Shown here in pieces: positions 852-52,840 of a DNA stretch of 64,000 bases. How positions within the stretch are numbered: position 1 is the stretch's first letter; each line of letters starts with the position of its first letter. This DNA comes from Octopus vulgaris (lineage: Eukaryota). The DNA lies in the NCBI GenBank assembly GCA_951406725.2, contig OX597825.1:44268001-44332000 (forward strand), read 5' to 3'. Under the pieces are notes generated by a model, which had not been told where the DNA came from, did not search any database, and saw only the letters and a list, made by a program, of their open reading frames with translations. Made by a program: the position numbers and the translations under genes.

Positions 852-1040
852 CATTATATTTAAGAGGAAAATTGATGGAGAATTCTCTTTATGAGGTTTT
901 CACGCTAACTACTTGATAAATTCTTATAAAGATTTTATCCTATTTTTAAATTGTATATATACATATGTATATATATATATATGCATATTTACACACACAC
1001 AAAATATATGTAAGTATATAAGCGTGTGTTGTAAATTTGT

Positions 1041-3530
1041 ATGTATCTCCTCGCTGGAATGACATCACTTGAACAGAGACAGACAGAGTCCTTGTTGGCT
1101 CTCACACGCAAGTCTTTCATGGAGCAAGCAGTGCTTCGGCCAACAAGAGGTGAGAATGTCTTGGACCTCTGTTTCACAAGCAACCCGATGCTCATCCACA
1201 ACATAATGGTAACACCTACAATTCTCTCAGATCACAACTTAGTAGAGGTAATGATATATGGTATGAGAGAGTTAGTTGAGACGCAGCCATTAGAAAATAC
1301 CACAGGCCTATCCAGTCTAAACTTCCATAAGGCAAACTGGAAGAAGATCAACGAAGAGATCCGAAAACATGACTGGAGTGACTTCATCACCACACAAGAC
1401 ACCAACACACATTTCCAACATTTCATGACAACAATACAGAACATATGCCATAGGTTTGTCCCGGAGAAAAAAGCCAGCGGGCATAGGAACGTTATTCCCA
1501 GAGACAGGAAAATACTTATGAGGCGAAGAGCTAAGCTCTCGAAGCAACTGAATGCACGGCAGAGAAACAATGAGGGACTCCACCTGAAGCTTTTTGAAAC
1601 GGAAACTGCACTCAAACTTTCCTATGAGAAGGAGAGGGCAGAGAGAGAAGCCAGGGCCATAGAGAATATTAAAACAAACCCTAAAGCCTTCTTTAAATTT
1701 GCGAAAGAAACCACCTCGGTACACTGCAAGATTGGCCCACTCTTTGATAAAAAGGGCTCTCTAACTGAGGACCCCCAAGGGATAAGTGAAATACTAAAGG
1801 AACAGTATAAAAGTGTGTTCACATCCCCTCTGGGGCACATGCAAATCACAAACCCAGAAGTTTTCTTTGATGCCACAACACTCCAAAACCAAACAACAAC
1901 CATCGACCACATAGACATAACAGAGAGGGATGTAATATCTGCCATAGAAGAAATGAGAATAAACTCAGCTGCTGGACCAGATGGATTCCCAGCAGTCCTC
2001 CTAAAAACATGCAGGCATGCCCTAGCGGGACCACTGAAGAAGCTCTTCAGTGGTTCCTTGGCTAACGGTAAACTGCCCAGGGCGCTAAAAGAAGGCACCA
2101 TATGCCCTATCCACAAAGGAGGGAGTAGAGCAGAGGCCAAAAACTACAGGCCAGTCTCCCTGACGTCACACATAAGTAAGGTCATGGAACGAATCATCAG
2201 AAAAAAACTGATCACGTTCCTCGAAGAAACTAACCGTCTCACTGACACACAGCATGGCTTTCGCCCAGGAAGAAGCTGCCTTACGCAGCTGTTACAACAC
2301 TACGACTGGGTACTGAAACAACTACTGGATCGCTCACAGGTGGATGTGGTATATCTCGACTTTGCGAAGGCCTTTGACAAAGTCGACCACGGAGTGATAT
2401 GTCACAAATTACTCAGACTCGGCATAACAGGAAAAGTAGGTGAGTGGATACATGACTTCCTGAAGGACAGAAGCCAGATGGTTGCAGCCAATGGAGCCCT
2501 CTCGGGAAAGACACCAATAGCAAGCGGGGTGCCACAGGGCACAGTCTTGGGACCCTTGCTGTTTTTGGTGGCGCTCTCTGACATGCCCTTGGTAGCACAA
2601 ACAACATCCCTCACTAGCTATGCTGATGACACAAAGGTAGCACAGGCAATCAAAAACCCAGCTGATGCTGACCTTTTACAACAAGATCTGGATGCCATAT
2701 ACAAATGGGCTGAAGACAACAACATGCAATTTAATGCTGGTAAATTTCAAGCCTTACAATATCAAGCTGTAAACACATATACATTACAACACAACTATAC
2801 TGGTCCAGGAGGGATCGAAATCCCAGTATCGAAATTAATACGGGACCTGGGGATAGACATGAGTGACGATGCATCTTTTTCTTCACACATCGCGAAGATG
2901 GCGACAATGTGCAGACGACTCACTGGCTGGATCCTGAGGACATTCCGGACAAGAGACTGCGAGACCATGTTGACACTATGGAGGACATTTGTCCTAAGCC
3001 GCCTGGACTACTGCTCCCAACTGTGGTCACCGCATAGTGTCAAACTAACCACAGAGCTTGAGACAATCCAAAGACATTTCACCAAGAGGATTTCCACCAT
3101 GAAAGAAAAGAACTATTGGGAGAGGCTTAGGGAACTCAATTTGTACTCCTTGGAACGAAGACGAGAGAGATATGCAGTGATATACATATGGAAAATCCTG
3201 GAGGGACTAGCACCAAATTTTGGAATTGAGAGCTGTTCCAATCCCCGTACAGGACGTCACTGTGTGGTGCCAAAGGTCCCGTCTTCCACATCCAGGGTAA
3301 GGAGCAGATACTGTAATAGCCTGGGGTTCAGGGGCCCTCAGCTGTTCAACAAACTGCCAAGAAAACTAAGAGATCTACATGATGCGGATGTGGACACTTT
3401 CAAAAAACATCTAGACAAGCTGCTTTCCGGGATCCCAGATGAACCCACTGCAAGGTACGAAGGTAACCTAAGGGCAGCAGCTACAAACTCTCTCTTAGAT
3501 CAGTGGCCAGCCACGGCAAACTGGACTTAG
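1041..3530 (+). CDS. CR1-clade LINE ORF2, 5'-truncated (APE C-terminus plus complete RT), uninterrupted 829 aa
   Basis: Motifs PTRGENVLDLCFT, SDHNLV, AAGPDGF, NYRPVSLTS, QHGFRPGRSC, YLDFAKAFDKVDH, GVPQGTVLGP, YADD, LDYCSQLWSP, LYSLERRRER. Confidence 0.95.
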   Translation: MYLLAGMTSLEQRQTESLLALTRKSFMEQAVLRPTRGENVLDLCFTSNPMLIHNIMVTPTILSDHNLVEVMIYGMRELVETQPLENTTGLSSLNFHKANWKKINEEIRKHDWSDFITTQDTNTHFQHFMTTIQNICHRFVPEKKASGHRNVIPRDRKILMRRRAKLSKQLNARQRNNEGLHLKLFETETALKLSYEKERAEREARAIENIKTNPKAFFKFAKETTSVHCKIGPLFDKKGSLTEDPQGISEILKEQYKSVFTSPLGHMQITNPEVFFDATTLQNQTTTIDHIDITERDVISAIEEMRINSAAGPDGFPAVLLKTCRHALAGPLKKLFSGSLANGKLPRALKEGTICPIHKGGSRAEAKNYRPVSLTSHISKVMERIIRKKLITFLEETNRLTDTQHGFRPGRSCLTQLLQHYDWVLKQLLDRSQVDVVYLDFAKAFDKVDHGVICHKLLRLGITGKVGEWIHDFLKDRSQMVAANGALSGKTPIASGVPQGTVLGPLLFLVALSDMPLVAQTTSLTSYADDTKVAQAIKNPADADLLQQDLDAIYKWAEDNNMQFNAGKFQALQYQAVNTYTLQHNYTGPGGIEIPVSKLIRDLGIDMSDDASFSSHIAKMATMCRRLTGWILRTFRTRDCETMLTLWRTFVLSRLDYCSQLWSPHSVKLTTELETIQRHFTKRISTMKEKNYWERLRELNLYSLERRRERYAVIYIWKILEGLAPNFGIESCSNPRTGRHCVVPKVPSSTSRVRSRYCNSLGFRGPQLFNKLPRKLRDLHDADVDTFKKHLDKLLSGIPDEPTARYEGNLRAAATNSLLDQWPATANWT

Positions 3531-17879: not shown

Positions 17880-19848
17880 TATTTAGAATAATCAAATTCA
17901 GTTCACAGTTAGATGTGACTCTTTTGCCAAGCAATAAAGTTTGATTCTTGAATATATTTGTTTCGTCAAAAATTAACGTTTGGTTCAAGAGCTATTATTT
18001 GTAGGACAACTAGAAACAGATGCAAAAGAGGACATAAAATATTTCGTATCTGAGAAATAGATCAGACACCGGTGGTAGGTTGTCATCACTGCCCCATCAA
18101 TTTATACCTAGCGTGTTTACAACGCACAGTCAACATCTGGTTGCAAATAATCTAAGTCTTAGACTTAACAAATTGTTGAGCACTGTTATCACAGCAATGA
18201 ATAGAATCAAAACACATGCTCTCAATTCCCCGCTGTTTAAACAGCTCTGTACTGAGATCGATAAAGTTTTTGAACATTTGTTGTTGCACTCAGAAATTCA
18301 ATAGCCTGTCAAAGGCAAACTATCTGAGAGTTTCTTATTTCTTTATTGCCCACAAGGGGCTAAACATAGAGGGGACAAACAAGGACATACAAAGGGATTA
18401 AGTCGACCCCAGTGCGTAACTGGTACTTAATTTATCGACTCCGAAAGGATGAAAGGCAAAGTCGACCTCGGCGGAATTTGAACTCAGAACGTAACGGCAG
18501 ACGAAATACCTATTTCTTTACTACCCACAAGGGGCTACACACAGAGGGAACAAACAAGGACAAACAAACGGATTAAGTCGATTATATCGACCCCAGTGCG
18601 TAACTGGTACTTAATTTATCGACTCCGAAAGGATGAAAGGCAAAGTCGACCTCGGTGGAATTTGAACTCAGAACGTAACGGCAGACGAAATACCTATTTC
18701 TTTACTACCCACAAGGGGCTACACACAGAGGGGACAAACAAGGACAAACAAACGGATTAAGTTGATTATATCGACCCAGTGCATAACTGGTACTTATTTT
18801 ATCGACCCCGAAAAGATGAAAGGCAAATTCGACCTCGGTGGAATTTGAACTCAGAACGTAACGGCAGACGAAATACCTATTTCTATTCCTTTACTACCCA
18901 CAAGGGGCTACATACAGAGGGGACAAACAAGGACAAACAAACGGATTAAGTTGATTATATCGACCCCAGTGCATAACTGGTACTTATTTTATCGACCCCG
19001 AAAAGATGAAAGGCAAATTCGACCTCGGCGGAATTTGAACTCAGAACGTAGCGGCAGACGAAATACAACTACGCATTTCGCCCGGCGTGCTAACGTTTCT
19101 GCCAGCTCGCCGCCTTACTATCTGAAAGTTTCTATAACCTTTCTAAAACAGTTGTTGAATTCTTGCCGGATTCTAATTATTTTTAATTATTATTTTTTTT
19201 TTTTGTGATGAACTAAAAATCATTAAGCATGAAATTGCAGATATATTCGCAAAGTTCAATGCATTTAATTTGAAACTGCCACGAAATGAGGTTGAACTTT
19301 ATCACGCTAAAATCAGCAGTCTCCATGTTTCTGTGCAAGTTATATTTATTCAAAGTTTTTTCCAGTTTCCGAGCCTCTCAGAATTGGAGATGGGAAAAGC
19401 GCATACCAGAAGATGATATTCAGGTGTATTATTCATACCTGGATGTGCTGCATAGATACATGTCTAGCAGATTTCAGTATATTTATATTTGCTTAAAATA
19501 ATGTTTTGGGTGAGCCCCAGATATCAGTAATGAGAAAGCAAATATTGTGAAGGAAGAACTGATTCCACCTTAAAATCGCATCGTGGTCAAAGCTCAAAAA
19601 ATCATATTAGGATTTTTGATTGCAAAAGGACATTTCTGACTGCTACGCAGCACTGTGGAACAATGTCAAAATCTACTTTATTATCTTTCAAATATCATAT
19701 TTAGTAGAACTGGGTTTCATTGCAGCTGCCCAGTTTCTTTCTAAGACTGGAAATTATTGAATGCGGGGATCTACGACTACTTCTTCGAGCCTTTCAGTCA
19801 GATGTCGAGAAGGCGATATCCCTGTATAATGTACAACCATCGCATTAA
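17880..19848 (+). pseudogene. hAT (Buster/Charlie-group) transposase relic interrupted by a SINE array
   Basis: QELLFVGQLETDAK, HSQHLVANNLS..LFKQLC..HLLLHSEIQ (cf. LLLHTEVRWLSKG), ADIFAKFN, SYLVELGF, GDLRLLL...VQPSH*. Confidence 0.85.
18336..19116 (-). mobile_element. tRNA-derived SINE family A tetramer (one head plus four ~180-bp bodies) with a single TSD
   Basis: Head ggcggcgagctggcagaaacgttagc. Four copies of gagttcaaattcc...gcctttcatcctttcggggtcgataaa. 17-bp TSD actatctga(g/a)agtttct at 18319-18335 and 19117-19133. Confidence 0.92.
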
Positions 19849-22116: not shown

Positions 22117-22757
22117 TTATTTAAAGTATTTAAACGTACGATGTATACAAGATGCTCCCAGCTCCAAACGGTTATTCAACAGATTTGTATTACCCTGATG
22201 TTTCAAAATTTCATAAGTTTCCATATAACAAAGTTGACAACCATCCCTACTATTTCTATAAGGTTGCGCTCTTCTAACTATATCCCATTTTTGGTTGAAT
22301 TCTATATTTTTTGTTTTTAGTTCCCAAATTTTACTAGATAATGTAGTGCAACCTACCTTATGTTTGAGCCTAAAATAGGAAATATGATTGTTTAGACGTT
22401 TTTTAAAATCTACCGAACAACCGAAATAAAGAAAGCTATTGTTTGAAGTTATCGTGCATTTATAAATTACCTTTTGGACCGAACAACAGCCAGATACCGG
22501 ACATTTTGATCTAATCCTACAATTACAACTGGGGGGGATAGTGTCCGGTACTGGAATTATTTAAGGACAGTTCACTTCCATTACTGTTATTTAAATTATT
22601 GTTAGTATTAGTATTATTTTCACTATTAGTAATTACGTTGTTATGCAAACTAGAGTTACTCATTATTAATCCACCCTCATTATTATCACCTACCATACTT
22701 TTATCTATACCATCTATATTATTGATATTGCTATTATCACTATTTACGTCAATGTTA

Positions 22758-22821
<64 letters not shown>

Positions 22822-23460
22822 CATCATCATTATTAATATTATTATTATTATTACCATTATAATAATAATAATTATTATTATTATTATTGCTATTTTTACA
22901 ATTATTATTACTATCATTGTTGTTACAATTCATTCTACTCCTAGCTAACTTAATGTTTTTACTATTAAGTCTAGCTATTATGGTAGCTATATCTAGGAGA
23001 GTGGAATATGAAATTCTCACTGATTTCCTAGAAATTATTTTATGATATTTATGGGAGGCTGGAAAATTTTTTTCCAGTATAGACATACATTTACTGTACA
23101 CATTCGTCGAGATCGTACAATTAAAGGGGATATTTAACCAGATGACATTTTCTCTTTTATGTTTTTTTGTTTAAGTAAGAGTGGGGAGGATTAGTTTTAT
23201 CAGTATTCATACGGGAATTATTATTCCTTTTAGAATTATTTTTATGCCTATTGGGTTTATCTAGGTTCGCATTTTCATATTTATTTATGATCTGTTTACT
23301 ATTTCTATTCTTATAATTAGGTTTATACGCTAGGTTCTTTTCCTCGATTGATTTATGTTTATGTAGGGTATGAGAGTTTATATTACTTAAGTTATTTACA
23401 TTCACTATATTATTTAGGAGATTTAAGCTATCAATATCTTGGAAGGTGATTCCCTGGTCA
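22117..23460 (-). mobile_element. 5'-truncated Penelope-like element: RT thumb/linker plus GIY-YIG endonuclease
   Basis: Hand translation: VIWLNIPFN..KNFPASHKYHKIISRKSVRISYS, an Asn-rich linker, then CNCRIRSKCPVSGCC..VIYKC..LYFGCSVDFKKRLNNH..TTLSSKIWELK..CQLCYME..LLNNRLELGASCIHR..stop at 22117-22119. Confidence 0.9.
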
Positions 23461-33139: not shown

Positions 33140-33818
33140 CAACCAAGTACCTAGAAGACCAACATCATGGGTCAGGCTACATCGGACATCCCAAACATAC
33201 ATATTGGAGACCACAGATTACAGGAGGTGGAGAAGTTTACCTATCTTGGCTCTACCGTCACCTACAACCTATCCCTTGACGCTGAGCTCAATATACGCAT
33301 TGGCAAGGCAGCTGCTGCGATGGCCCAACTCTCCAAACGGGCATAGGACAACAATAAGCTGACCAATACCACGAAAATGAAGATCTATCAGGCATGTGTA
33401 CTTAGCACTCTACTGTATGGAAGTGAGACTTGGATGCCATACACACGCCAAGAGCATCGCCTAAACATATTTCACCTGCGCTGCCTCCGAAAATCCTTCG
33501 CATCAAATGGCAGAATCATATCCCCAACAAAGATGTCCTCAAGCAAGCAGGAATACCAAGCATGTTTGCACTCCTCACACAAAGACGTATGAGATGGCTT
33601 GGGCATGTTAGCCGTATGAAAGATGGCAGAATCCCCAAGGGCATACTCTACGGAAAGCTTGCTAGGGGTACTAGGTCTGTGGGAAGACCGTTCTTACGTT
33701 ACAGGATGTTTGCAAAAGGGACATGAAGGCCTGCAACATCAATATTAGCAATTGGGAAGCAGTTGCCAGCAACCGTGGAGATTGGCGACGTACCGTAAAA
33801 GAGGGAATACAAAAGAGT

Positions 33819-33877
<59 letters not shown>

Positions 33878-34095
33878 AATGGAAAGACAAGAAAAGACGT
33901 CAACAAGAAACTATGACATTACAACCAGCCAGGAACAGTCTTCGCAACATTTGCGGCACCTGCCAGAGGGAGTGTTTGTCCAGGATAGGACTATACACCT
34001 ACAGCAGGAAATGTATCAGGACATGAAATGTAAAAGCCGGACAAGACTATTTTATGCGCAACTCCATTGTCTCCCGAGACAAAAAGGATGCCAAC
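33140..34095 (+). mobile_element. RTE-clade LINE 3' fragment, frameshifted, with internal (GA)n
   Basis: EVEKFTYLGS, RIGKAA, VLSTLLYGSETW, RRMRWLGHV, CGTCQRECLSRIGL. Tail gcgcaactccattgtctcccgagacaaaaaggatgc. Confidence 0.92.
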
Positions 34096-34751
34096 CTGAT
34101 GCACGGAAAGAATAGAGGTGTGGGAAAAGACGTAAAATGTGACAACCGCTGAAGACTTTGTGGTATTCATACTGAAGATATAACCCACATCATAAGCAGT
34201 TGTCCGAAAATGTCATCACGGTATCATCTATCAATGAAACGAAGTTCTAGCTAGAACACTCTAGAATGAAATCCGTCGGAAGGATAATCCCGAGGACAAA
34301 GAAATAGAAACCCACAATACAGTAGAAGCCATTTATAATGAAGCCATTATAATGAAAAGGAATACTGGTGGAATGTACTAGACCTGATTTGGGATAGAGA
34401 AGAGAAACCGTACACAGTTGTAGAAATTATCTGCCCAGCGGATGTTAACATAAAGCTGAAGATCAGTAAAAATCCATTGAGAAATCTACAATTACTCTAT
34501 CCAGATTACAGGTTCAGGCTTATACCTGTAATTATTGGGGCCCTGTGATATGTAACACACTGTCTAAATACCAAACTTGAGAAATTAGGCTTCTCAAAAC
34601 CAAAAAGGAGAAAGCTAATTCAAAGGGGATAGATCCAATCCATCACTGGAACTGTAAAATTCTGTAAAAACTTCCAGAAGTTTATCATTTAAATATATAT
34701 GAGCATGTCGCATAAGAATACATACGTAAAACATACAAATCTGCACATACA

Positions 34752-34787
<36 letters not shown>

Positions 34788-34800
34788 TACATACATACAT

Positions 34801-35350
34801 GGTGGCTGCCCCCTCATTATCGAGTATGGCCATTGCACGAAGCTTAATCAATGTTGTTATCGTGCAATGCCTGTGCAAGAAGATTTTTTTTAAGTGAGGA
34901 AAGGCTGTGCACTGAGTCAATCCCACTCACTAAGCAACAGCAGCCATAATCCGAAAAGAAGATCAAGTCAACATCATCGGTAACCACTGAGCCGCAGGTT
35001 TTATATCGGAGTTATCCCAGTTACCTGAGTTACCTTCTCCTAGGAGGATGCTTAACAAAGGCTAGGAGACCTTCACTCCTAATGGTTTAACCGCGCGATC
35101 GGGTATTCAGTCCGATTATTTCTATGTCTCCGCGCATGATACAGCCTTAAGACATTTATTGGATGGCCGTTGACTCTCAAGAGTTCCTCCGTCCTTTGAC
35201 GGGTTTTGTTTTTCATCCCGCAGGGTGTCCAATAAACACCCTCCTCACCAAGCAAGCTTGGTGGGGTTGCCGGTTTAGTCGCCGACGACCTGGCAATGCA
35301 ATAGGTTGTACTGGGTTACATGTTACCAGTAGCACTCGAAAGTGACCTGA
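34801..35350 (-). mobile_element. 550-bp non-coding element sharing its first ~190 nt with the RTE 5' end at 52645-52835
   Basis: 35160-35350 aligns with 52645-52835. Flanked on both sides by (TACA)n. Confidence 0.85.
35270..35347 (-). ncRNA. HDV-like ribozyme fold (putative)
   Basis: Order on minus strand: P1 (ggtcac or ggtaac), P2 ccagt, P3 aca, L3 acctat, P3' tgc, P1' attgcc, agg, P4 tcg-tcgg-cga, CTAA, P2' accgg. Confidence 0.55.
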
Positions 35351-35659
35351 CATACATACATACATACGTACATACATACATACATACATACATGCATACA
35401 TACATACATACATGCATGCATGCATGCATGCATGCATGCATACATACATACATACATACATACATACATACATACATACATACATACATACATACATACA
35501 TACATGCGTACATACATACATACAAACAAAAGTACCCTATTGTTGATGTTGAAATTCCAGTGAAAAAACCTTGGATCTAGGTTAGAAACCGGTTCTTTCT
35601 CTATTGGCAAGAAATCTTGAAATAAACTGAATAATGACATACATACATACATACATACA

Positions 35660-36072: not shown

Positions 36073-37316
36073 TCAGGTCATCCCATAAGTTCCGTCCGAT
36101 TTGACCTTTTTTAAAAATGAATGTAATTTAATAGTATTTTAGAATGTCAAATGGAATTAAAACTTATTTTTATGCATTTGTGTACATTTGAACTAATTAA
36201 ATATTATTTTACAGAATAATAGAATTAAAATTTCTTTGATTAAAACCCTTTCTAACATGGAAGTATCCAAAGAGCATTTAAAGCACAAAATGTTTATGAG
36301 TATAAAAAAGGAAACTCTGCAGCCGAAGCGACTCGAAAAATACACTCAGTTTATGGGTAAGAATGCTTGAATAAAAGAACTTGCGGAAAATGGTTTGCAA
36401 AATTCAGAAGTGGCGATTTCAGCCTCGAAGATGAAGATCGAATGGGACGTCCAGTTGAGTTGGATGATAAGCTCCTTGGGGCATTACTTGAGGAAAATCT
36501 TGCTTTATCAGTTGAAGAATTAGCAATAAAGCTTATTTCAAACCATACAACTGTTCATCGTCAACTTCAACAACTTGGAAAGGTTCCTAAACTTGGAAAA
36601 TGGGTGCCTCCTGAATTTTCCGAAAGCAACCGCAAATCCCGAGTTGACATCTGCTCTTCTCTCCATTCTCGTGAACTCATTTCACCCCTTTTGGGTAGAC
36701 TTGTGACTGGTGACGAAAAATGGATCTTCTGTGGAAATGTTAAACGTCGTAAACAGTGGCTTGGTAAAAGGGAAAAAGCTCAACCACAACCGAGAAGGGA
36801 ACTTCATGGAAAAAATGTTCTTCGTTCTATCTGGTGGGATTGCAAAGGAGTAATTCACTTTGAATTGTTACCACCTAATGCAACAATCAATGCTTAAGTA
36901 TACAGCCAGCAATTAGAGCGTTTGAACCAAGCTTTGAAGAAAAAAATGACCCGCTTTAGTGAATCGAAAAGGCGTGATGCAAAGATCACATCACAGAAGA
37001 TCGAGAAAAAATTCCTCATCCACCTTATTCTCCCAACCTTGCTCCTTCAGTCTACCATTTGTTTCGTAGTTTATAGAATCATTTAGGGTATGTAACTTTC
37101 GCAAGCCAACATGAGGTCGAAACTGACAATTCGGAGTTCTTCGCTTTGAAACCAAAAGAGTTTTACATTGATGGGATTAAAAAGCTTGTAAATAGATGGA
37201 AGGAAGCCATAGATAATCAGGGAAAATACATTGAAGACTAAATTTCAATTAAATATAACATTTGATCACTTGTTTTCTTAATTAAAAATTCGGACAGAAC
37301 TTATGGGATGACCTAA
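36073..37316 (+). mobile_element. Near full-length mariner transposon, defective transposase (~36257-37241)
   Basis: 27-bp TIRs t(c/t)aggtcatcccataagtt(cc/ct)gtccga with TA TSDs. WVPPEF, VTGDEKW, HPPYSPNLAPS. Contains stops and frameshifts. Confidence 0.95.
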
Positions 37317-48892: not shown

Positions 48893-51800
48893 TTATTTTA
48901 TGTTCGTCCTTTGGGTTCGAAGATGACCATGGACATCATTTGGTGGAATTGCTGCTATGAGACCGGAGGTGGCTGGTGAGGCCAAACCGGGCAAGAAAGC
49001 CCCTCCCACAGGTGGGGCAGAAGTAGGTAGGGGCTGTGCTATTGGTGCAGGTGGCTCTGGCTTTCCGCATCTGGCGTTTCTGTTCTGCTGACTGAATCCG
49101 TCTCTCCTCGGCTGTCTTTGCTCCTGTGGTGATTGCGCTGCGCCAGGATGAGCGGTCGGCAGCAAGTGTCTCCCAAGACTCTGTGCCGATGGAGACGTCT
49201 TTGAGAGAGACTTTGAGACTGTCCTTGAAGCGCTTCTTCTGCCCTCCGACTTTGCGTTTGCCCTGGGTGAGTTCACCGTAGAAGAGCTGTTTTGGGATGC
49301 GAGTGTCGGACATGCGGGAGACGTGGCCTGCCCATCTCAGCTGGGCCTTGCGCATGATCGTGATGGTGCTAAGGAGATCTGCCTGCTTCAAAACTTCCGT
49401 GTCTGGGACTTTGTCCTGCCAGCGGATGTGAAGGAGGTTCCGAAGACACCTGAGGTGGAAGTGGTTTATCTGGCGCTCGTGCCTTCGGTAAGCAGTCCAC
49501 GTCTCGCAGCCGTATAGTAGGGTAGTAAGCACGACTGCCCGGTAGACTTTCAGCTTGGTGTTGAGGCTGATTCCTCTCCACTCCCAGACTTTCTTTCGCA
49601 GAACCCCAAACGCGCTGCTTGCCTTGGAGATTCTGTTGATGATTTCAGCATCTATGTTAGCATTGCAGGAGAGAGTTCTGCCCAGGTAGGTGAAGTTTTC
49701 CACCGCTCGTAGGATCCGTCCGTTCACCTTTATCTGAGGCTCATGGTATTGTTTGCCGGGGGCTGGCTGAAACATCACTTCGGTTTTCTTGGCACTGATG
49801 GTGAGACCGAAGTTGTCACAGGCTGATGTGAACCTGTTCATCCCGAGCTGCATCTCCTGCTCATCGATTGCGTTAAGGGCGCAGTCGTCAGCAAAGAGAA
49901 AGTCTCTGACGACTGTCTCCCTCACCTTTGTGACGGCCTGCAATCTTCTGGAGTTGAAAAATTTCCCGTCCGTCCTGTACTTGATGTCGATACCGGACTT
50001 GCAGTCCCTGAAGGCGTCGGACAGCATTGCCGAGAACATGATGCTGAACAGTATTGGGGCCAGGACACAGCCCTGCCTGACTCCGCTGGTCACCTGGAAG
50101 ACTTCAGATGAGTTGCCGTCTTCAAGGACTCTGGCTGTCATTCCGTCGTAGAATTGGCGGACAATTGCAATAAATTTGCTGGGGCAACCAAATTTTCCCA
50201 TGACCAGAGTCCCTCCCGACTTACTGTATCGAAAGCCCTGGTGAAGTCAACAAAGGTCATGCAGAGGTCAAGGTGCTGCTGCATGCATTTCTCCTGGAGC
50301 TGGCGGGTGGCGAATATCATGTCAGTGGTCCCTCGACCCGCGCGGAAGCCACACTGGCTCTCAGGGAGAAGGCTTTGCTCCAAGTGTTACAGAAGGCGGG
50401 CAAGCAGGACTCGGTCCATGATCTTGCCTGCTATGGACAAGAGGAAGATTCCTCGGTGGTTGTCGCAGGACTGCCAATCTCCTTTCCGCTTATAAATGTG
50501 GACGATTGTTGCGTCCCGGAAATCTTGAGGGAGTTGTTCCCTGTCCCACATCGACTGGAACAGGCTGGTGAGCTGACTGATCATGGTGGGGCCGCCCGAC
50601 TTGAACACCTCTGCAGGGATGGCGTCAGAGCCTGGAGCTTTGCCGGTGGACATTTTTTTATGGCTCTGCTCACTTCCTCGACTGCAGGGGGAACAGCCAG
50701 CTCGTGGTTTGTCGGCACCTGGGGGAGTCGTGCGATGGCTTCCTCGTTGATCTGGGCTGGTCGGTTGAGCACGATGTTGAAATGCTCCGCCCATCTCTTC
50801 AGGATCAGCCTCTTGTTAGTCAGGAGTGAGGTTCCATCCGAGCTGAGCAGGGGGGGTTGATCCAAAGGAGGACTGCGGTCCATAGGCAGCTTTCAGCGCC
50901 TCGTAGAATTTCTTGGTGTCGTGTTTGTCTGCGTATCCCTGAATCTCATCCGCATTGGCGCTTAACTATGCGTCTTGCATGAGGCGGAGTTTTGCCTGGA
51001 CTGTGCTGCGAATGTTGTTGAAAGCAGCCTTCTTTGCCGTGCAGGTGGTGTCATTTTGATGGGCCCGCAGCAGACGGCGTTTCTCTTCCAGGAGTTTTTG
51101 GATTTCCTGGCCGTTTTCATCGAACCAGTCCTGGTGATTCCTCGTAACTTGGCCTAGAGTTTCAAGGGCGATGGAATGAACCGTGTCCCTGGATGATTCC
51201 CACTGCTCATCGATGCTGGACTGGTCATTCCGAATGTCCAACAGCTTGCTGTCCACACGTGACTGGAGACCTTGTGCAGTCAGCTGGTTCTTTAATTTCG
51301 TGATGTTAAGCTTCCTCGTCACTTTCTGACCTTGTGGTCTTCTCTTAGGTTGGATGTAGAAATCCATCCTGGAGAGCTCCACACATGGCTTTGACCAGTC
51401 TCACGTCCCGCCTGTCTTTCGCCCTGACGATGACGTAATCTATCAGATGCCAGTGTTTGGAGCGTGGATGCATCCATGATGTCTTGTTGCGTGTTGGCAG
51501 ACGGAACAAGGTGTTGGCGATGGTAAGATCATGAGAGGCGCACGCCCGCAGGAGGAGCTGCCTGTTGTTGTTGCACTTTCCGATTCCTTGCTTTCCCAGT
51601 ACGCGATGCCAGGCTTGGTAGTCAGTCCCGACACGGGCGTTAAAGTCCCCAAGGAGGATGAGCTTCCCAGGCTGGGCTGACGTGATGAGGGAGTCGAGTT
51701 CCTCATAGAACCTGTCCTTAACTTCTTCGGGGTTGGTCATGGTGGGGGCGTAAGCGCTGATGATGGTTGCACTCGTCTTGTTTCCAAGTGGGAGCTGCAT

Positions 51801-52835
51801 CTTCATCAGCCGATCGTTGATACCCTCGGGGGAGCTTTCCAGTTTCCGCACGTGTACTGACTTGATGACAAAACCAACACCAGCCTCACGACGCTCTTCG
51901 CTGCTGCGACCACCCCAAAAGAAAGTGTAGCCGCCGCCTGTCTCTGTCAGCTGGCCTTTGTCCGCAAGGCGGGTCTCGCTCAGTGCTGCGATATCGACAT
52001 TGTATCGGCTCAGTTCTCTGGCCACCAGGGCAGTTCGTCTCTCTGGTCTGTCCGCTTTGGTGTTGTCAAGCAGAGTTCTCACGTTCCAAGTTGCGAAAGT
52101 GAGCACCTTTGTTCGTTTTCTTTCTTTGTTTCGACTGCTTGGAAAGGATCCCCGCCAGCCGCGGTTTGCTGACCAAGGTGAGGTGAGGCAGGCTATGTTT
52201 AGGGCAACCTTTTCTAGCCCCGTCCTCATGCTGCGGAGGCGAGCAGAGCGATCCTGAAGAGGGCTGCTCGGTCACTCAGGAGGCTGCCGGACTCCACTGC
52301 TACCTCAGTTCAGTGAGGGGCGACCACATGTCCTGAGCCGCCTGTGTGTGGGTTCACGACTGCAGCTCCCAGTGTATCCTCACATGCTACTTCGCCGTTT
52401 CCCCATCGTCACAGGACTTTGTGATGTTGGTGTCATGATGTCATGACGTGCGCGTGACTTGGATTATAGTGAGGGTGACTTGCGCAGGATCAGCCTCACT
52501 GTCTCGTCCTGGTGCGCCGGATCCAGTGGCAAGACAAAGTCAAGACGGCTGGGGGTAGACCAGGATGCAGGAGCTGCCGGAAGGTGGCACGCATGGCGCA
52601 ATCCAACCGCCTTAGGGGCTCCACTCCGGATTTATGTAGGTTTTTGGATGGCCATTGACTCATGAGAGAGTTCCTCTGCCCTTTAACAGGTTTTGTTTTT
52701 AGTCCTGCTGGGTGTCCAAATCACCCTCCTCACCAAGAAATCTTGGTGGGGTTGCCAGTTTAGTCGCCAACGACCCGACCACGTAACAGGTTGTACTGGG
52801 TTACATATTACCAGTAGCCCCAAACGGAGACCTGA
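48893..52835 (-). mobile_element. Near full-length RTE (BovB-like) LINE: APE, RT and C2H2 finger, broken by a few frameshifts/stops
   Basis: TWNVRTL, LSETRL, SAYAPT, LGDFNARVG, HWHLIDY, QCGFRAGRGTTD, AFDTV, GVRQGCVLAP, LFADD, CPTCGRGF..LTSHLRSH. ~600-bp 5' UTR. Confidence 0.96.
52755..52832 (-). ncRNA. HDV-like ribozyme fold at the RTE 5' terminus (putative)
   Basis: P2 ccagt/actgg, L3 acctgt, P1' gtggtc, gg, P4 gtcg-ttgg-cga(c), CTAA. P1 and P3 are imperfect in this copy. Confidence 0.5.
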
Positions 52836-52840
52836 CACGC

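Follow-up and report, generated by a model that had tools for sequence, protein, structure and literature searches.

A short octopus RTE derivative headed by a predicted subclass-1a xrRNA

The 64,000-nucleotide stretch of Octopus vulgaris DNA analysed here (the window) carries, at 34801..35352 on the minus strand, a whole non-autonomous element that by its sequence is a non-coding, internally deleted, bipartite derivative of an RTE retrotransposon, which we call RTE-B. As a transposon it is ordinary. Its first ~58 bases, as far as sequence can tell, have every feature of a flavivirus subclass-1a xrRNA. We consider it probable, with moderate confidence, that this head folds as such an xrRNA, likely stopping host 5'-3' exonucleases and so likely setting and protecting the start of the element's RNA. 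To a wider model we give about even chances: a branch of animal RTEs and their short parasites would form their 5' ends by a true subclass-1a xrRNA, with Xrn1 or Xrn2 trimming read-through RNA, so that thousands of chromosomal copies would share ancestry with viral xrRNAs and provide a nuclease-roadblock alternative to release by a ribozyme.

The copy in the window has no ORF, differs from its family majority by 13 substitutions and one gap, and sits, as described previously, inside a (TACA)n microsatellite, of which 34745..34800 lies on the 3' side of the element and is likely the target, while 35353..35528 lies on the 5' side. The 5' piece (34846..35352, minus strand) is the start of the RTE-B 5' UTR (~507 bases); over the first 510 bases the majorities of the two families are equal at 509 positions. 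The 3' piece (34804..34847, minus strand) is the last ~45 bases of RTE-B, including a terminal hairpin at 34824-34813, and is identical at 45 of 45 positions to the RTE-B copy at locus L117. The two pieces meet in a TT microhomology (34847-34846, minus strand), and the element ends in a short ACC tail unit (34801..34803, minus strand); RTE-B copies have ATA or ATC units at this end. The ~360 nucleotides behind the first ~190, for which the preliminary description had found no other match in the window, are the rest of the RTE-B 5' UTR plus its 3' end. The absence of a tRNA head was borne out, no tRNA gene being present anywhere in the 64-kb window.

The genome (2.8 Gb in 227 contigs) was searched for further copies. 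A DNA search returned 1,967 first-look candidates for the element, 40 of which were scored; 40 of the resulting 41 matches cover the whole 550 bases at 95-96% identity, as expected of a discrete element of ~550 bp with fixed ends. Both ends are common to 30 aligned copies, and 25 copies diverge from the majority by ~3%. The loci are spread over many chromosomes, with the same deletion junction and RTE tail throughout. Exact matches to the head motif numbered 1,425 and those to the tail motif 2,481, with none for either control pattern. Because only 18 of 30 copies found by BLAST retain the exact head motif, we estimate roughly 1,500-2,000 dispersed full copies. The first 30 loci with the head pattern comprised 21 short elements, three copies of a ~640-base form, one full parent, one copy cut short and four members of other families. 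The ~640-base form (L061, L078, L085, L094, L122) likewise derives from RTE-B by deletion, but at another junction. Of 19 copies found by the pattern, 18 are flanked by alternating purines and pyrimidines, a sequence type that makes up 12% of 20-mers in the background. When tested for target-site duplications, own flanks scored a mean of 8.6 and foreign flanks 7.0, a signal swamped by the microsatellites. A degraded U6 snRNA copy (L002:489-588, minus strand; 41.8 bits) was noticed near one element copy.

RTE-B itself lies elsewhere in the genome. It was found through head and tail matches 3.7 kb apart at L117 and L118, where both pieces of the element flank one endonuclease-RT-zinc-finger ORF. 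This single ORF encodes an endonuclease, an RT and C2H2 fingers, and there is no ORF1; on this layout and on sequence motifs, we provisionally assign the parent to the RTE clade. The RTE-B tail recurs in L118, L296-298 and L300, four of five further RTE-B regions possess the same head and tail, and the start base of the element is also that of 18 of 25 RTE-B copies.

The preliminary description had regarded the element as a parasite of RTEs and had linked its 5' end to the RTE present in the window itself, a family A copy (RTE-A; 48900..52837, minus strand) broken into several ORF pieces for endonuclease and RT. The reported homology between their 5' ends is real: element positions 35156-35333 align with RTE positions 52641-52818 over 178 bases at 85% identity (E 1e-51), and the family majorities agree at 87% over 201 columns from a common start. 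The last ~35 bases of the element also resemble the tail of the window RTE-A. The homology at the 5' end stops after ~190 bases, however, and RTE-A was rejected as the parent, of which it is a cousin. Its ORF span (48936-52271, ~3,336 bases) and leader are close in size to those of the brain-expressed octopus RTE-2_OV, which has a 3,327-base ORF and a ~600-base UTR (PMC9115989); RTE-A motifs were absent from the 8 of 12 supplement files of that article that were searched for RTE-2_OV.

Bipartite RTE derivatives are an already known kind. In the portions of Kojima 2018 (PMC5786205) available to us, Bov-A, RTESINE1/2, WALLSI3 and RTE-N2_Lch resemble the element in joining the 5' and 3' ends of an autonomous RTE, in being dispersed and in lacking an ORF or a small-RNA head, whereas in the element, unlike the bipartite derivatives described there, the 5' piece is long (~507 bases) and the 3' piece short (~45 bases). 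Those portions mention predicted ribozymes at RTE 5' ends and contain no xrRNA. The characterization of the element as a SINE-like parasite of RTEs thus stands with regard to its being discrete, tRNA-less and non-coding, with fixed ends and a pseudoknotted 5' head; the HDV-like ribozyme that formed part of it does not.

The defining features of subclass-1a xrRNAs are a three-way junction, a single C that separates P2 from P3, a U-A-U triple and the pseudoknots PK1 and PK2 (PMC8374639, PMC4829329). Following the sequence features given in PMC8374639, the predicted xrRNA of the element occupies 35295..35352 on the minus strand. It opens with TGT (S1, 35352-35350), followed by a P1 of 5 bp (35349-35345 with 35306-35302), a P2 of 4 bp (35344-35333), the single C (35332), a P3 of 6 bp (35331-35326 with 35314-35309) enclosing an 11-base L3 (35325-35315), the CA that partners PK1 (35308-35307), the P1 partner strand and S4 (35301-35295), which pairs with L3 over 5-7 bp. 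The strand CCAGU, previously assigned to P2 of a ribozyme, pairs instead with an upstream strand as P3, with covariation. An intact predicted xrRNA begins RTE-A (52780..52837, minus strand) and is the sole match to our topology descriptor on either strand of the 64 kb. The element copy in the window fails this descriptor through a private G-to-A change at 35302 that breaks the outer P1 pair; judged by its sequence, this copy is likely dead. The descriptor is passed by 19 of 30 element copies and 21 of 30 RTE-A copies.

Among 19 heads from different families, the PK1 pairs are G-C in 19 and U-A in 17, with no covariation; these bases were fixed by the search pattern in most rows and free in copies found by BLAST. 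The U of the triple is invariant and the second P3 pair is A-U in all 18 representatives, at the level of sequence and as part of the pattern. The single C is likewise present in 18 of 18 representatives; it was fixed in the pattern-found rows and free for families A and B. Mutation load in the copies is not lower in the knot (1.5% versus 1.6%), and plain folding of the first ~95 bases, which is uninformative for pseudoknots, gave z-scores of -0.23 and +0.47.

Compensatory change argues for the fold. In P2, both sides differ between RTE-A and RTE-B in three of four pairs. Looser patterns also recovered families C and D and B-like families from the genome. When 19 heads were aligned with MAFFT, 89.7% of cells were paired and 59 two-sided changes were counted, a result reached by none of 500 shuffles; slid controls of the same alignment were 26-44% paired. 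Pairing amounted to 100% in P1, 89.5% in P2 and 93.8% in P3, with two-sided changes in two, three and three pairs, respectively. The search pattern had fixed P1 (at least partly), PK1 and three P3 pairs, leaving P2, P3 pairs 4-6 and PK2 free; the rows were chosen by hand and are mutually related, so that these statistics lean towards the xrRNA model. PK2 reaches at least 4 bp in 15 of 18 representatives, being poor in L189, L232 and L235, and four of its five pairs show two-sided changes. Cognate L3-S4 pairing averages 5.2 bp against 3.5 bp for non-cognate combinations (p<1e-5 for 18 representatives, p=2e-5 for 12).

Several members of this alignment come from metagenomes, where a pattern scan found at least 120 stretches, 80 of them with DNA that grouped into 36 clusters. 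Among the matches listed, six of the 36 clusters pass P1, P2, P3 and PK2, or seven with a 30-member cluster included, the null expectation being 0.0014 per match; the remaining clusters look like chance matches. At L169 and L232 an RTE-like ORF follows ~460-490 bases downstream of the head. The 30-member cluster is a dispersed repeat of ~240 bases (30 loci on contigs JAAUXV/JAAUXW; L165, L172, L181, L204 and others) that starts exactly at TGT and is, from its sequence, likely an independent xrRNA-headed short element in another animal. This repeat was also seen to end in an RTE-like hairpin tail. Most other folding matches in the metagenomes (L183, L200, L201, L205, L206, L211, L226) showed no tie to a retrotransposon. 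At L200:565-2550 (minus strand) the knot stands at the start of an RTE-like leader module that is itself repeated, and behind it lies a 589-aa frame containing ankyrin repeats. Family C showed no RT end in the seven regions examined for full-length copies. Family D has two tandem internal knots (L101:1372-1575, L105:1499-1690) within a repeat containing direct repeats, reminiscent of flaviviral tandem xrRNAs.

As a control, the head pattern was run against a viral collection, where it matched only eight stretches, all eight located 11-31 bases past a long ORF. Four of these lie in contigs of ~10.8 kb and three have Rfam flavivirus 3' UTR families; one, L288, exceeds the gathering cut-off for Flavi_xrRNA at the pattern match and is the only one of the eight to pass RF01415 or RF03547 at gathering. 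Since the viral matches all follow long ORFs, with three in Rfam flavivirus families and one Flavi_xrRNA, we conclude that the pattern marks real xrRNAs. In two virus-like contigs (L235:18-83 and L282:37-82) the class-1a motif directly follows a long ORF; L235 is possibly a non-flavivirus carrier, because its two long ORFs have no Pfam match. Rfam scored the octopus head weakly. The best match, at 19 bits (E 0.89), placed Flavivirus_SLIV on the first 70 bases, and over the element this family (RF01415) gave 19-30 bits, under its cut-off of 54.5; Flavi_xrRNA (RF03547) had no match to the element at E<=10. A flavivirus-exact pattern gave no matches, and a genome search with RF01415 gave none among 64 scored of 84,788 candidates, which is uninformative.

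With the flavivirus subclass-1a xrRNAs (MVEV, ZIKV, DENV; RF01415, RF03547) the head shares the junction, PK1, the triple, the single C, PK2 and near-identical conserved bases, and its core of 51 bases lies within the 44-54 bases of the viral matches. It differs in heading a retrotransposon in a chromosome, where the viral examples occupy a 3' UTR, and in scoring under the Rfam cut-offs. It is also followed by an H-type pseudoknot, not by a plain P4 hairpin.

The position of the start is consistent with a nuclease roadblock. Conservation of the element families ends at the first PK1 base, which is the first paired base of the knot, and Xrn1 is described as halting ~1 base before the first stem (PMC8078501). 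The preliminary description had placed a common start for the element and RTE-A at tca|ggtc; both families do share one start, but it lies two bases earlier, at TGT-CAGG (35352). At the RTE-A start the T is present in 27 of 30 copies, while the base two positions beyond it varies, and in the ~240-base family random bases precede TGT in 28 copies. Among copies of the element, the pair of bases preceding TGT is mostly fixed as well (42 and 47 of 51), the microsatellite blurring the start by ~2 bases.

We propose the following as a model. A copy of the element would be transcribed within a longer host RNA, from an intron or by read-through. Xrn1 or Xrn2 would degrade the upstream RNA down to the knot, and the trimmed RNA would stay protected without a cap. 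The RTE-B protein would then bind the common 3' hairpin and, through target-primed reverse transcription, copy the trimmed transcript into (TA/TG/TATG)n. In this scheme the knot would do the job performed by HDV-like ribozymes in other RTE, R2 and L1Tc elements.

Fixed starts are also expected from an internal promoter, and our main rival is that the xrRNA works but an internal RNA polymerase II promoter sets the start, the knot shielding the RNA after decapping or aiding cap-poor translation. We regard this as possible, if unlikely. Kojima 2018 (PMC5786205) considers it very likely that polymerase II transcribes bipartite LINEs under the control of their 5' ends, and ~450 bases of 5' UTR have been retained behind the knot. 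Against this, families A, B and C and those from metagenomes have only the covarying fold in common, and conservation goes no further than the fold's first paired base.

Less probable still is that the fold is real but serves something else: it might give the RTE protein a hold in second-strand synthesis, act as an RT stop or be a self-cleaving ribozyme with an xrRNA-like frame. Either a ribozyme or an RT stop would likewise fix the 5' junction where the fold begins, R2 proteins are reported to bind a 5' pseudoknot (PMC6765202), and PK2 is weak in two RTE-linked families. Yet the invariant bases (the triple U, the single C and PK1) are those required for flaviviral Xrn1 resistance, the same pattern marks xrRNAs in viral 3' UTRs, and xrRNAs are reported to be passable for polymerases from the 3' side (PMC4829329).

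It now seems very improbable that, as first proposed, an HDV-like ribozyme frees the element by cutting at tca|ggtc. HDV-like ribozymes are reported to head some RTE, R2 and L1Tc elements, and the element does possess a CUAA and a short hairpin downstream of a GG. A descriptor written for this analysis was run at four settings, two of which kept the standard L3/P1.1 rule. At these two strict settings the nested-pseudoknot order claimed for the head was not recovered: neither the element and RTE-A majorities nor the two window copies gave a match, whether or not one mismatch was allowed in P1 and P2, although shuffles passed in 2 of 60 cases and, with the mismatch allowed, in 25 of 60. Loose settings gave inconsistent matches at chance level (55 of 60 shuffles), and an Rfam search placed no HDV-type family on the element. 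Nearly all copies retain the TGTCA that precedes the proposed G1 (T 51/51, G 49/51, T 51/51). The CUAA, proposed as the catalytic stretch, falls inside a second predicted H-type pseudoknot of 5 bp + 5 bp downstream of the head (35269..35295, minus strand), and its CU is paired in a covarying stem rather than forming a single-stranded J4/2. In the window copy 7 of the 10 pairs of this pseudoknot remain, the first stem being damaged; 13 of 14 sequences have 9 or 10 of 10 pairs, and two-sided changes occur in L189/L194 and L232. Family C keeps the head without the CUAA stretch.

That the element is single-copy or merely the 5' UTR of a 3'-truncated RTE, an outcome the preliminary description had named as fatal to its reading, is refuted to the point of being negligible, for although 92% of the element is RTE-B 5' UTR, 40 of 41 matches, spread over many chromosomes, cover the whole element and have one junction and an RTE tail, and 21 of 30 pattern-found heads belong to the short form.

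Other retrotransposons likewise carry a compact fold at their exact 5' end that would release them from a longer transcript and is kept by their short parasites, namely those headed by HDV-like ribozymes (R2/SIDE, L1Tc/NARTc and some RTE) or by twister variants (Perere-3) (PMC6765202, PMC8501958). Their folds self-cleave, whereas the element head does not conform to HDV rules and is predicted to block a host nuclease. A further comparison is offered by LP-SINE, Nimb-17_LMi and RTE-9_CPB of molluscs (Matetovici 2016, PMC4758252), in which a ~70-base 5' domain is common to the 5' UTRs of unrelated LINEs and to tRNA-less short elements; its authors read this domain as a promoter. Its sequence is different and lacks the motifs of the octopus head, as judged by eye from a single supplement passage and through a motif search. 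Neither approach showed homology to the first ~70 bases of Nimb-17_LMi, and an identity of the element head with the LP-SINE head domain was rejected.

A literature search, with subscription journals, Repbase and patents outside its reach, returned no report of a natural xrRNA in a retrotransposon, and a PDB search yielded L1 and R2 proteins only. According to a 2021 review, xrRNAs had been characterised in viruses only, and whether eukaryotic genomes contain them was an open question (PMC8374639). The heads described here are concrete, assayable eukaryotic xrRNA candidates with natural compensatory variants. They would represent a third route to a precise non-LTR 5' end, besides promoters and ribozymes, and an xrRNA head may explain why RTE derivatives retain their extreme 5' end. 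They also prompt one to ask whether such RNAs have passed between retrotransposons and RNA viruses. Gene-insertion tools use RTE UTRs as RNA templates (PMC13708176), for which cap-free 5' protection would matter.

The ends of the RTEs may also interact. A 10-bp stem spans the deletion junction of the element (34831..34869, minus strand; 34869-34860 with 34840-34831), and we treat it as a lead. Its arms are ~3.6 kb apart in RTE-B, and both deletion forms keep both arms. In a search interval picked post hoc, 5'-3' pairing of 10 bp was found in two of five RTE-B copies (L296, L297), against 1-2 of 300 shuffles; 9 bp were found in two of five RTE-A copies and none in three other elements. A long-range pairing of the end of the 5' UTR with the 3' end is possible.

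The window contains other repeats. Plus-strand LINE 3' remnants (33675-34745) run into the (TACA)n that holds the element. An open LINE frame of 831 aa occupies 1035-3530, and a 184-base tandem array of 3.6 copies with a SINE-like unit lies at 18336-19066. Judged by their motifs, 22117-23170 and 36361-36897 are Penelope-like and mariner-like fragments, respectively.
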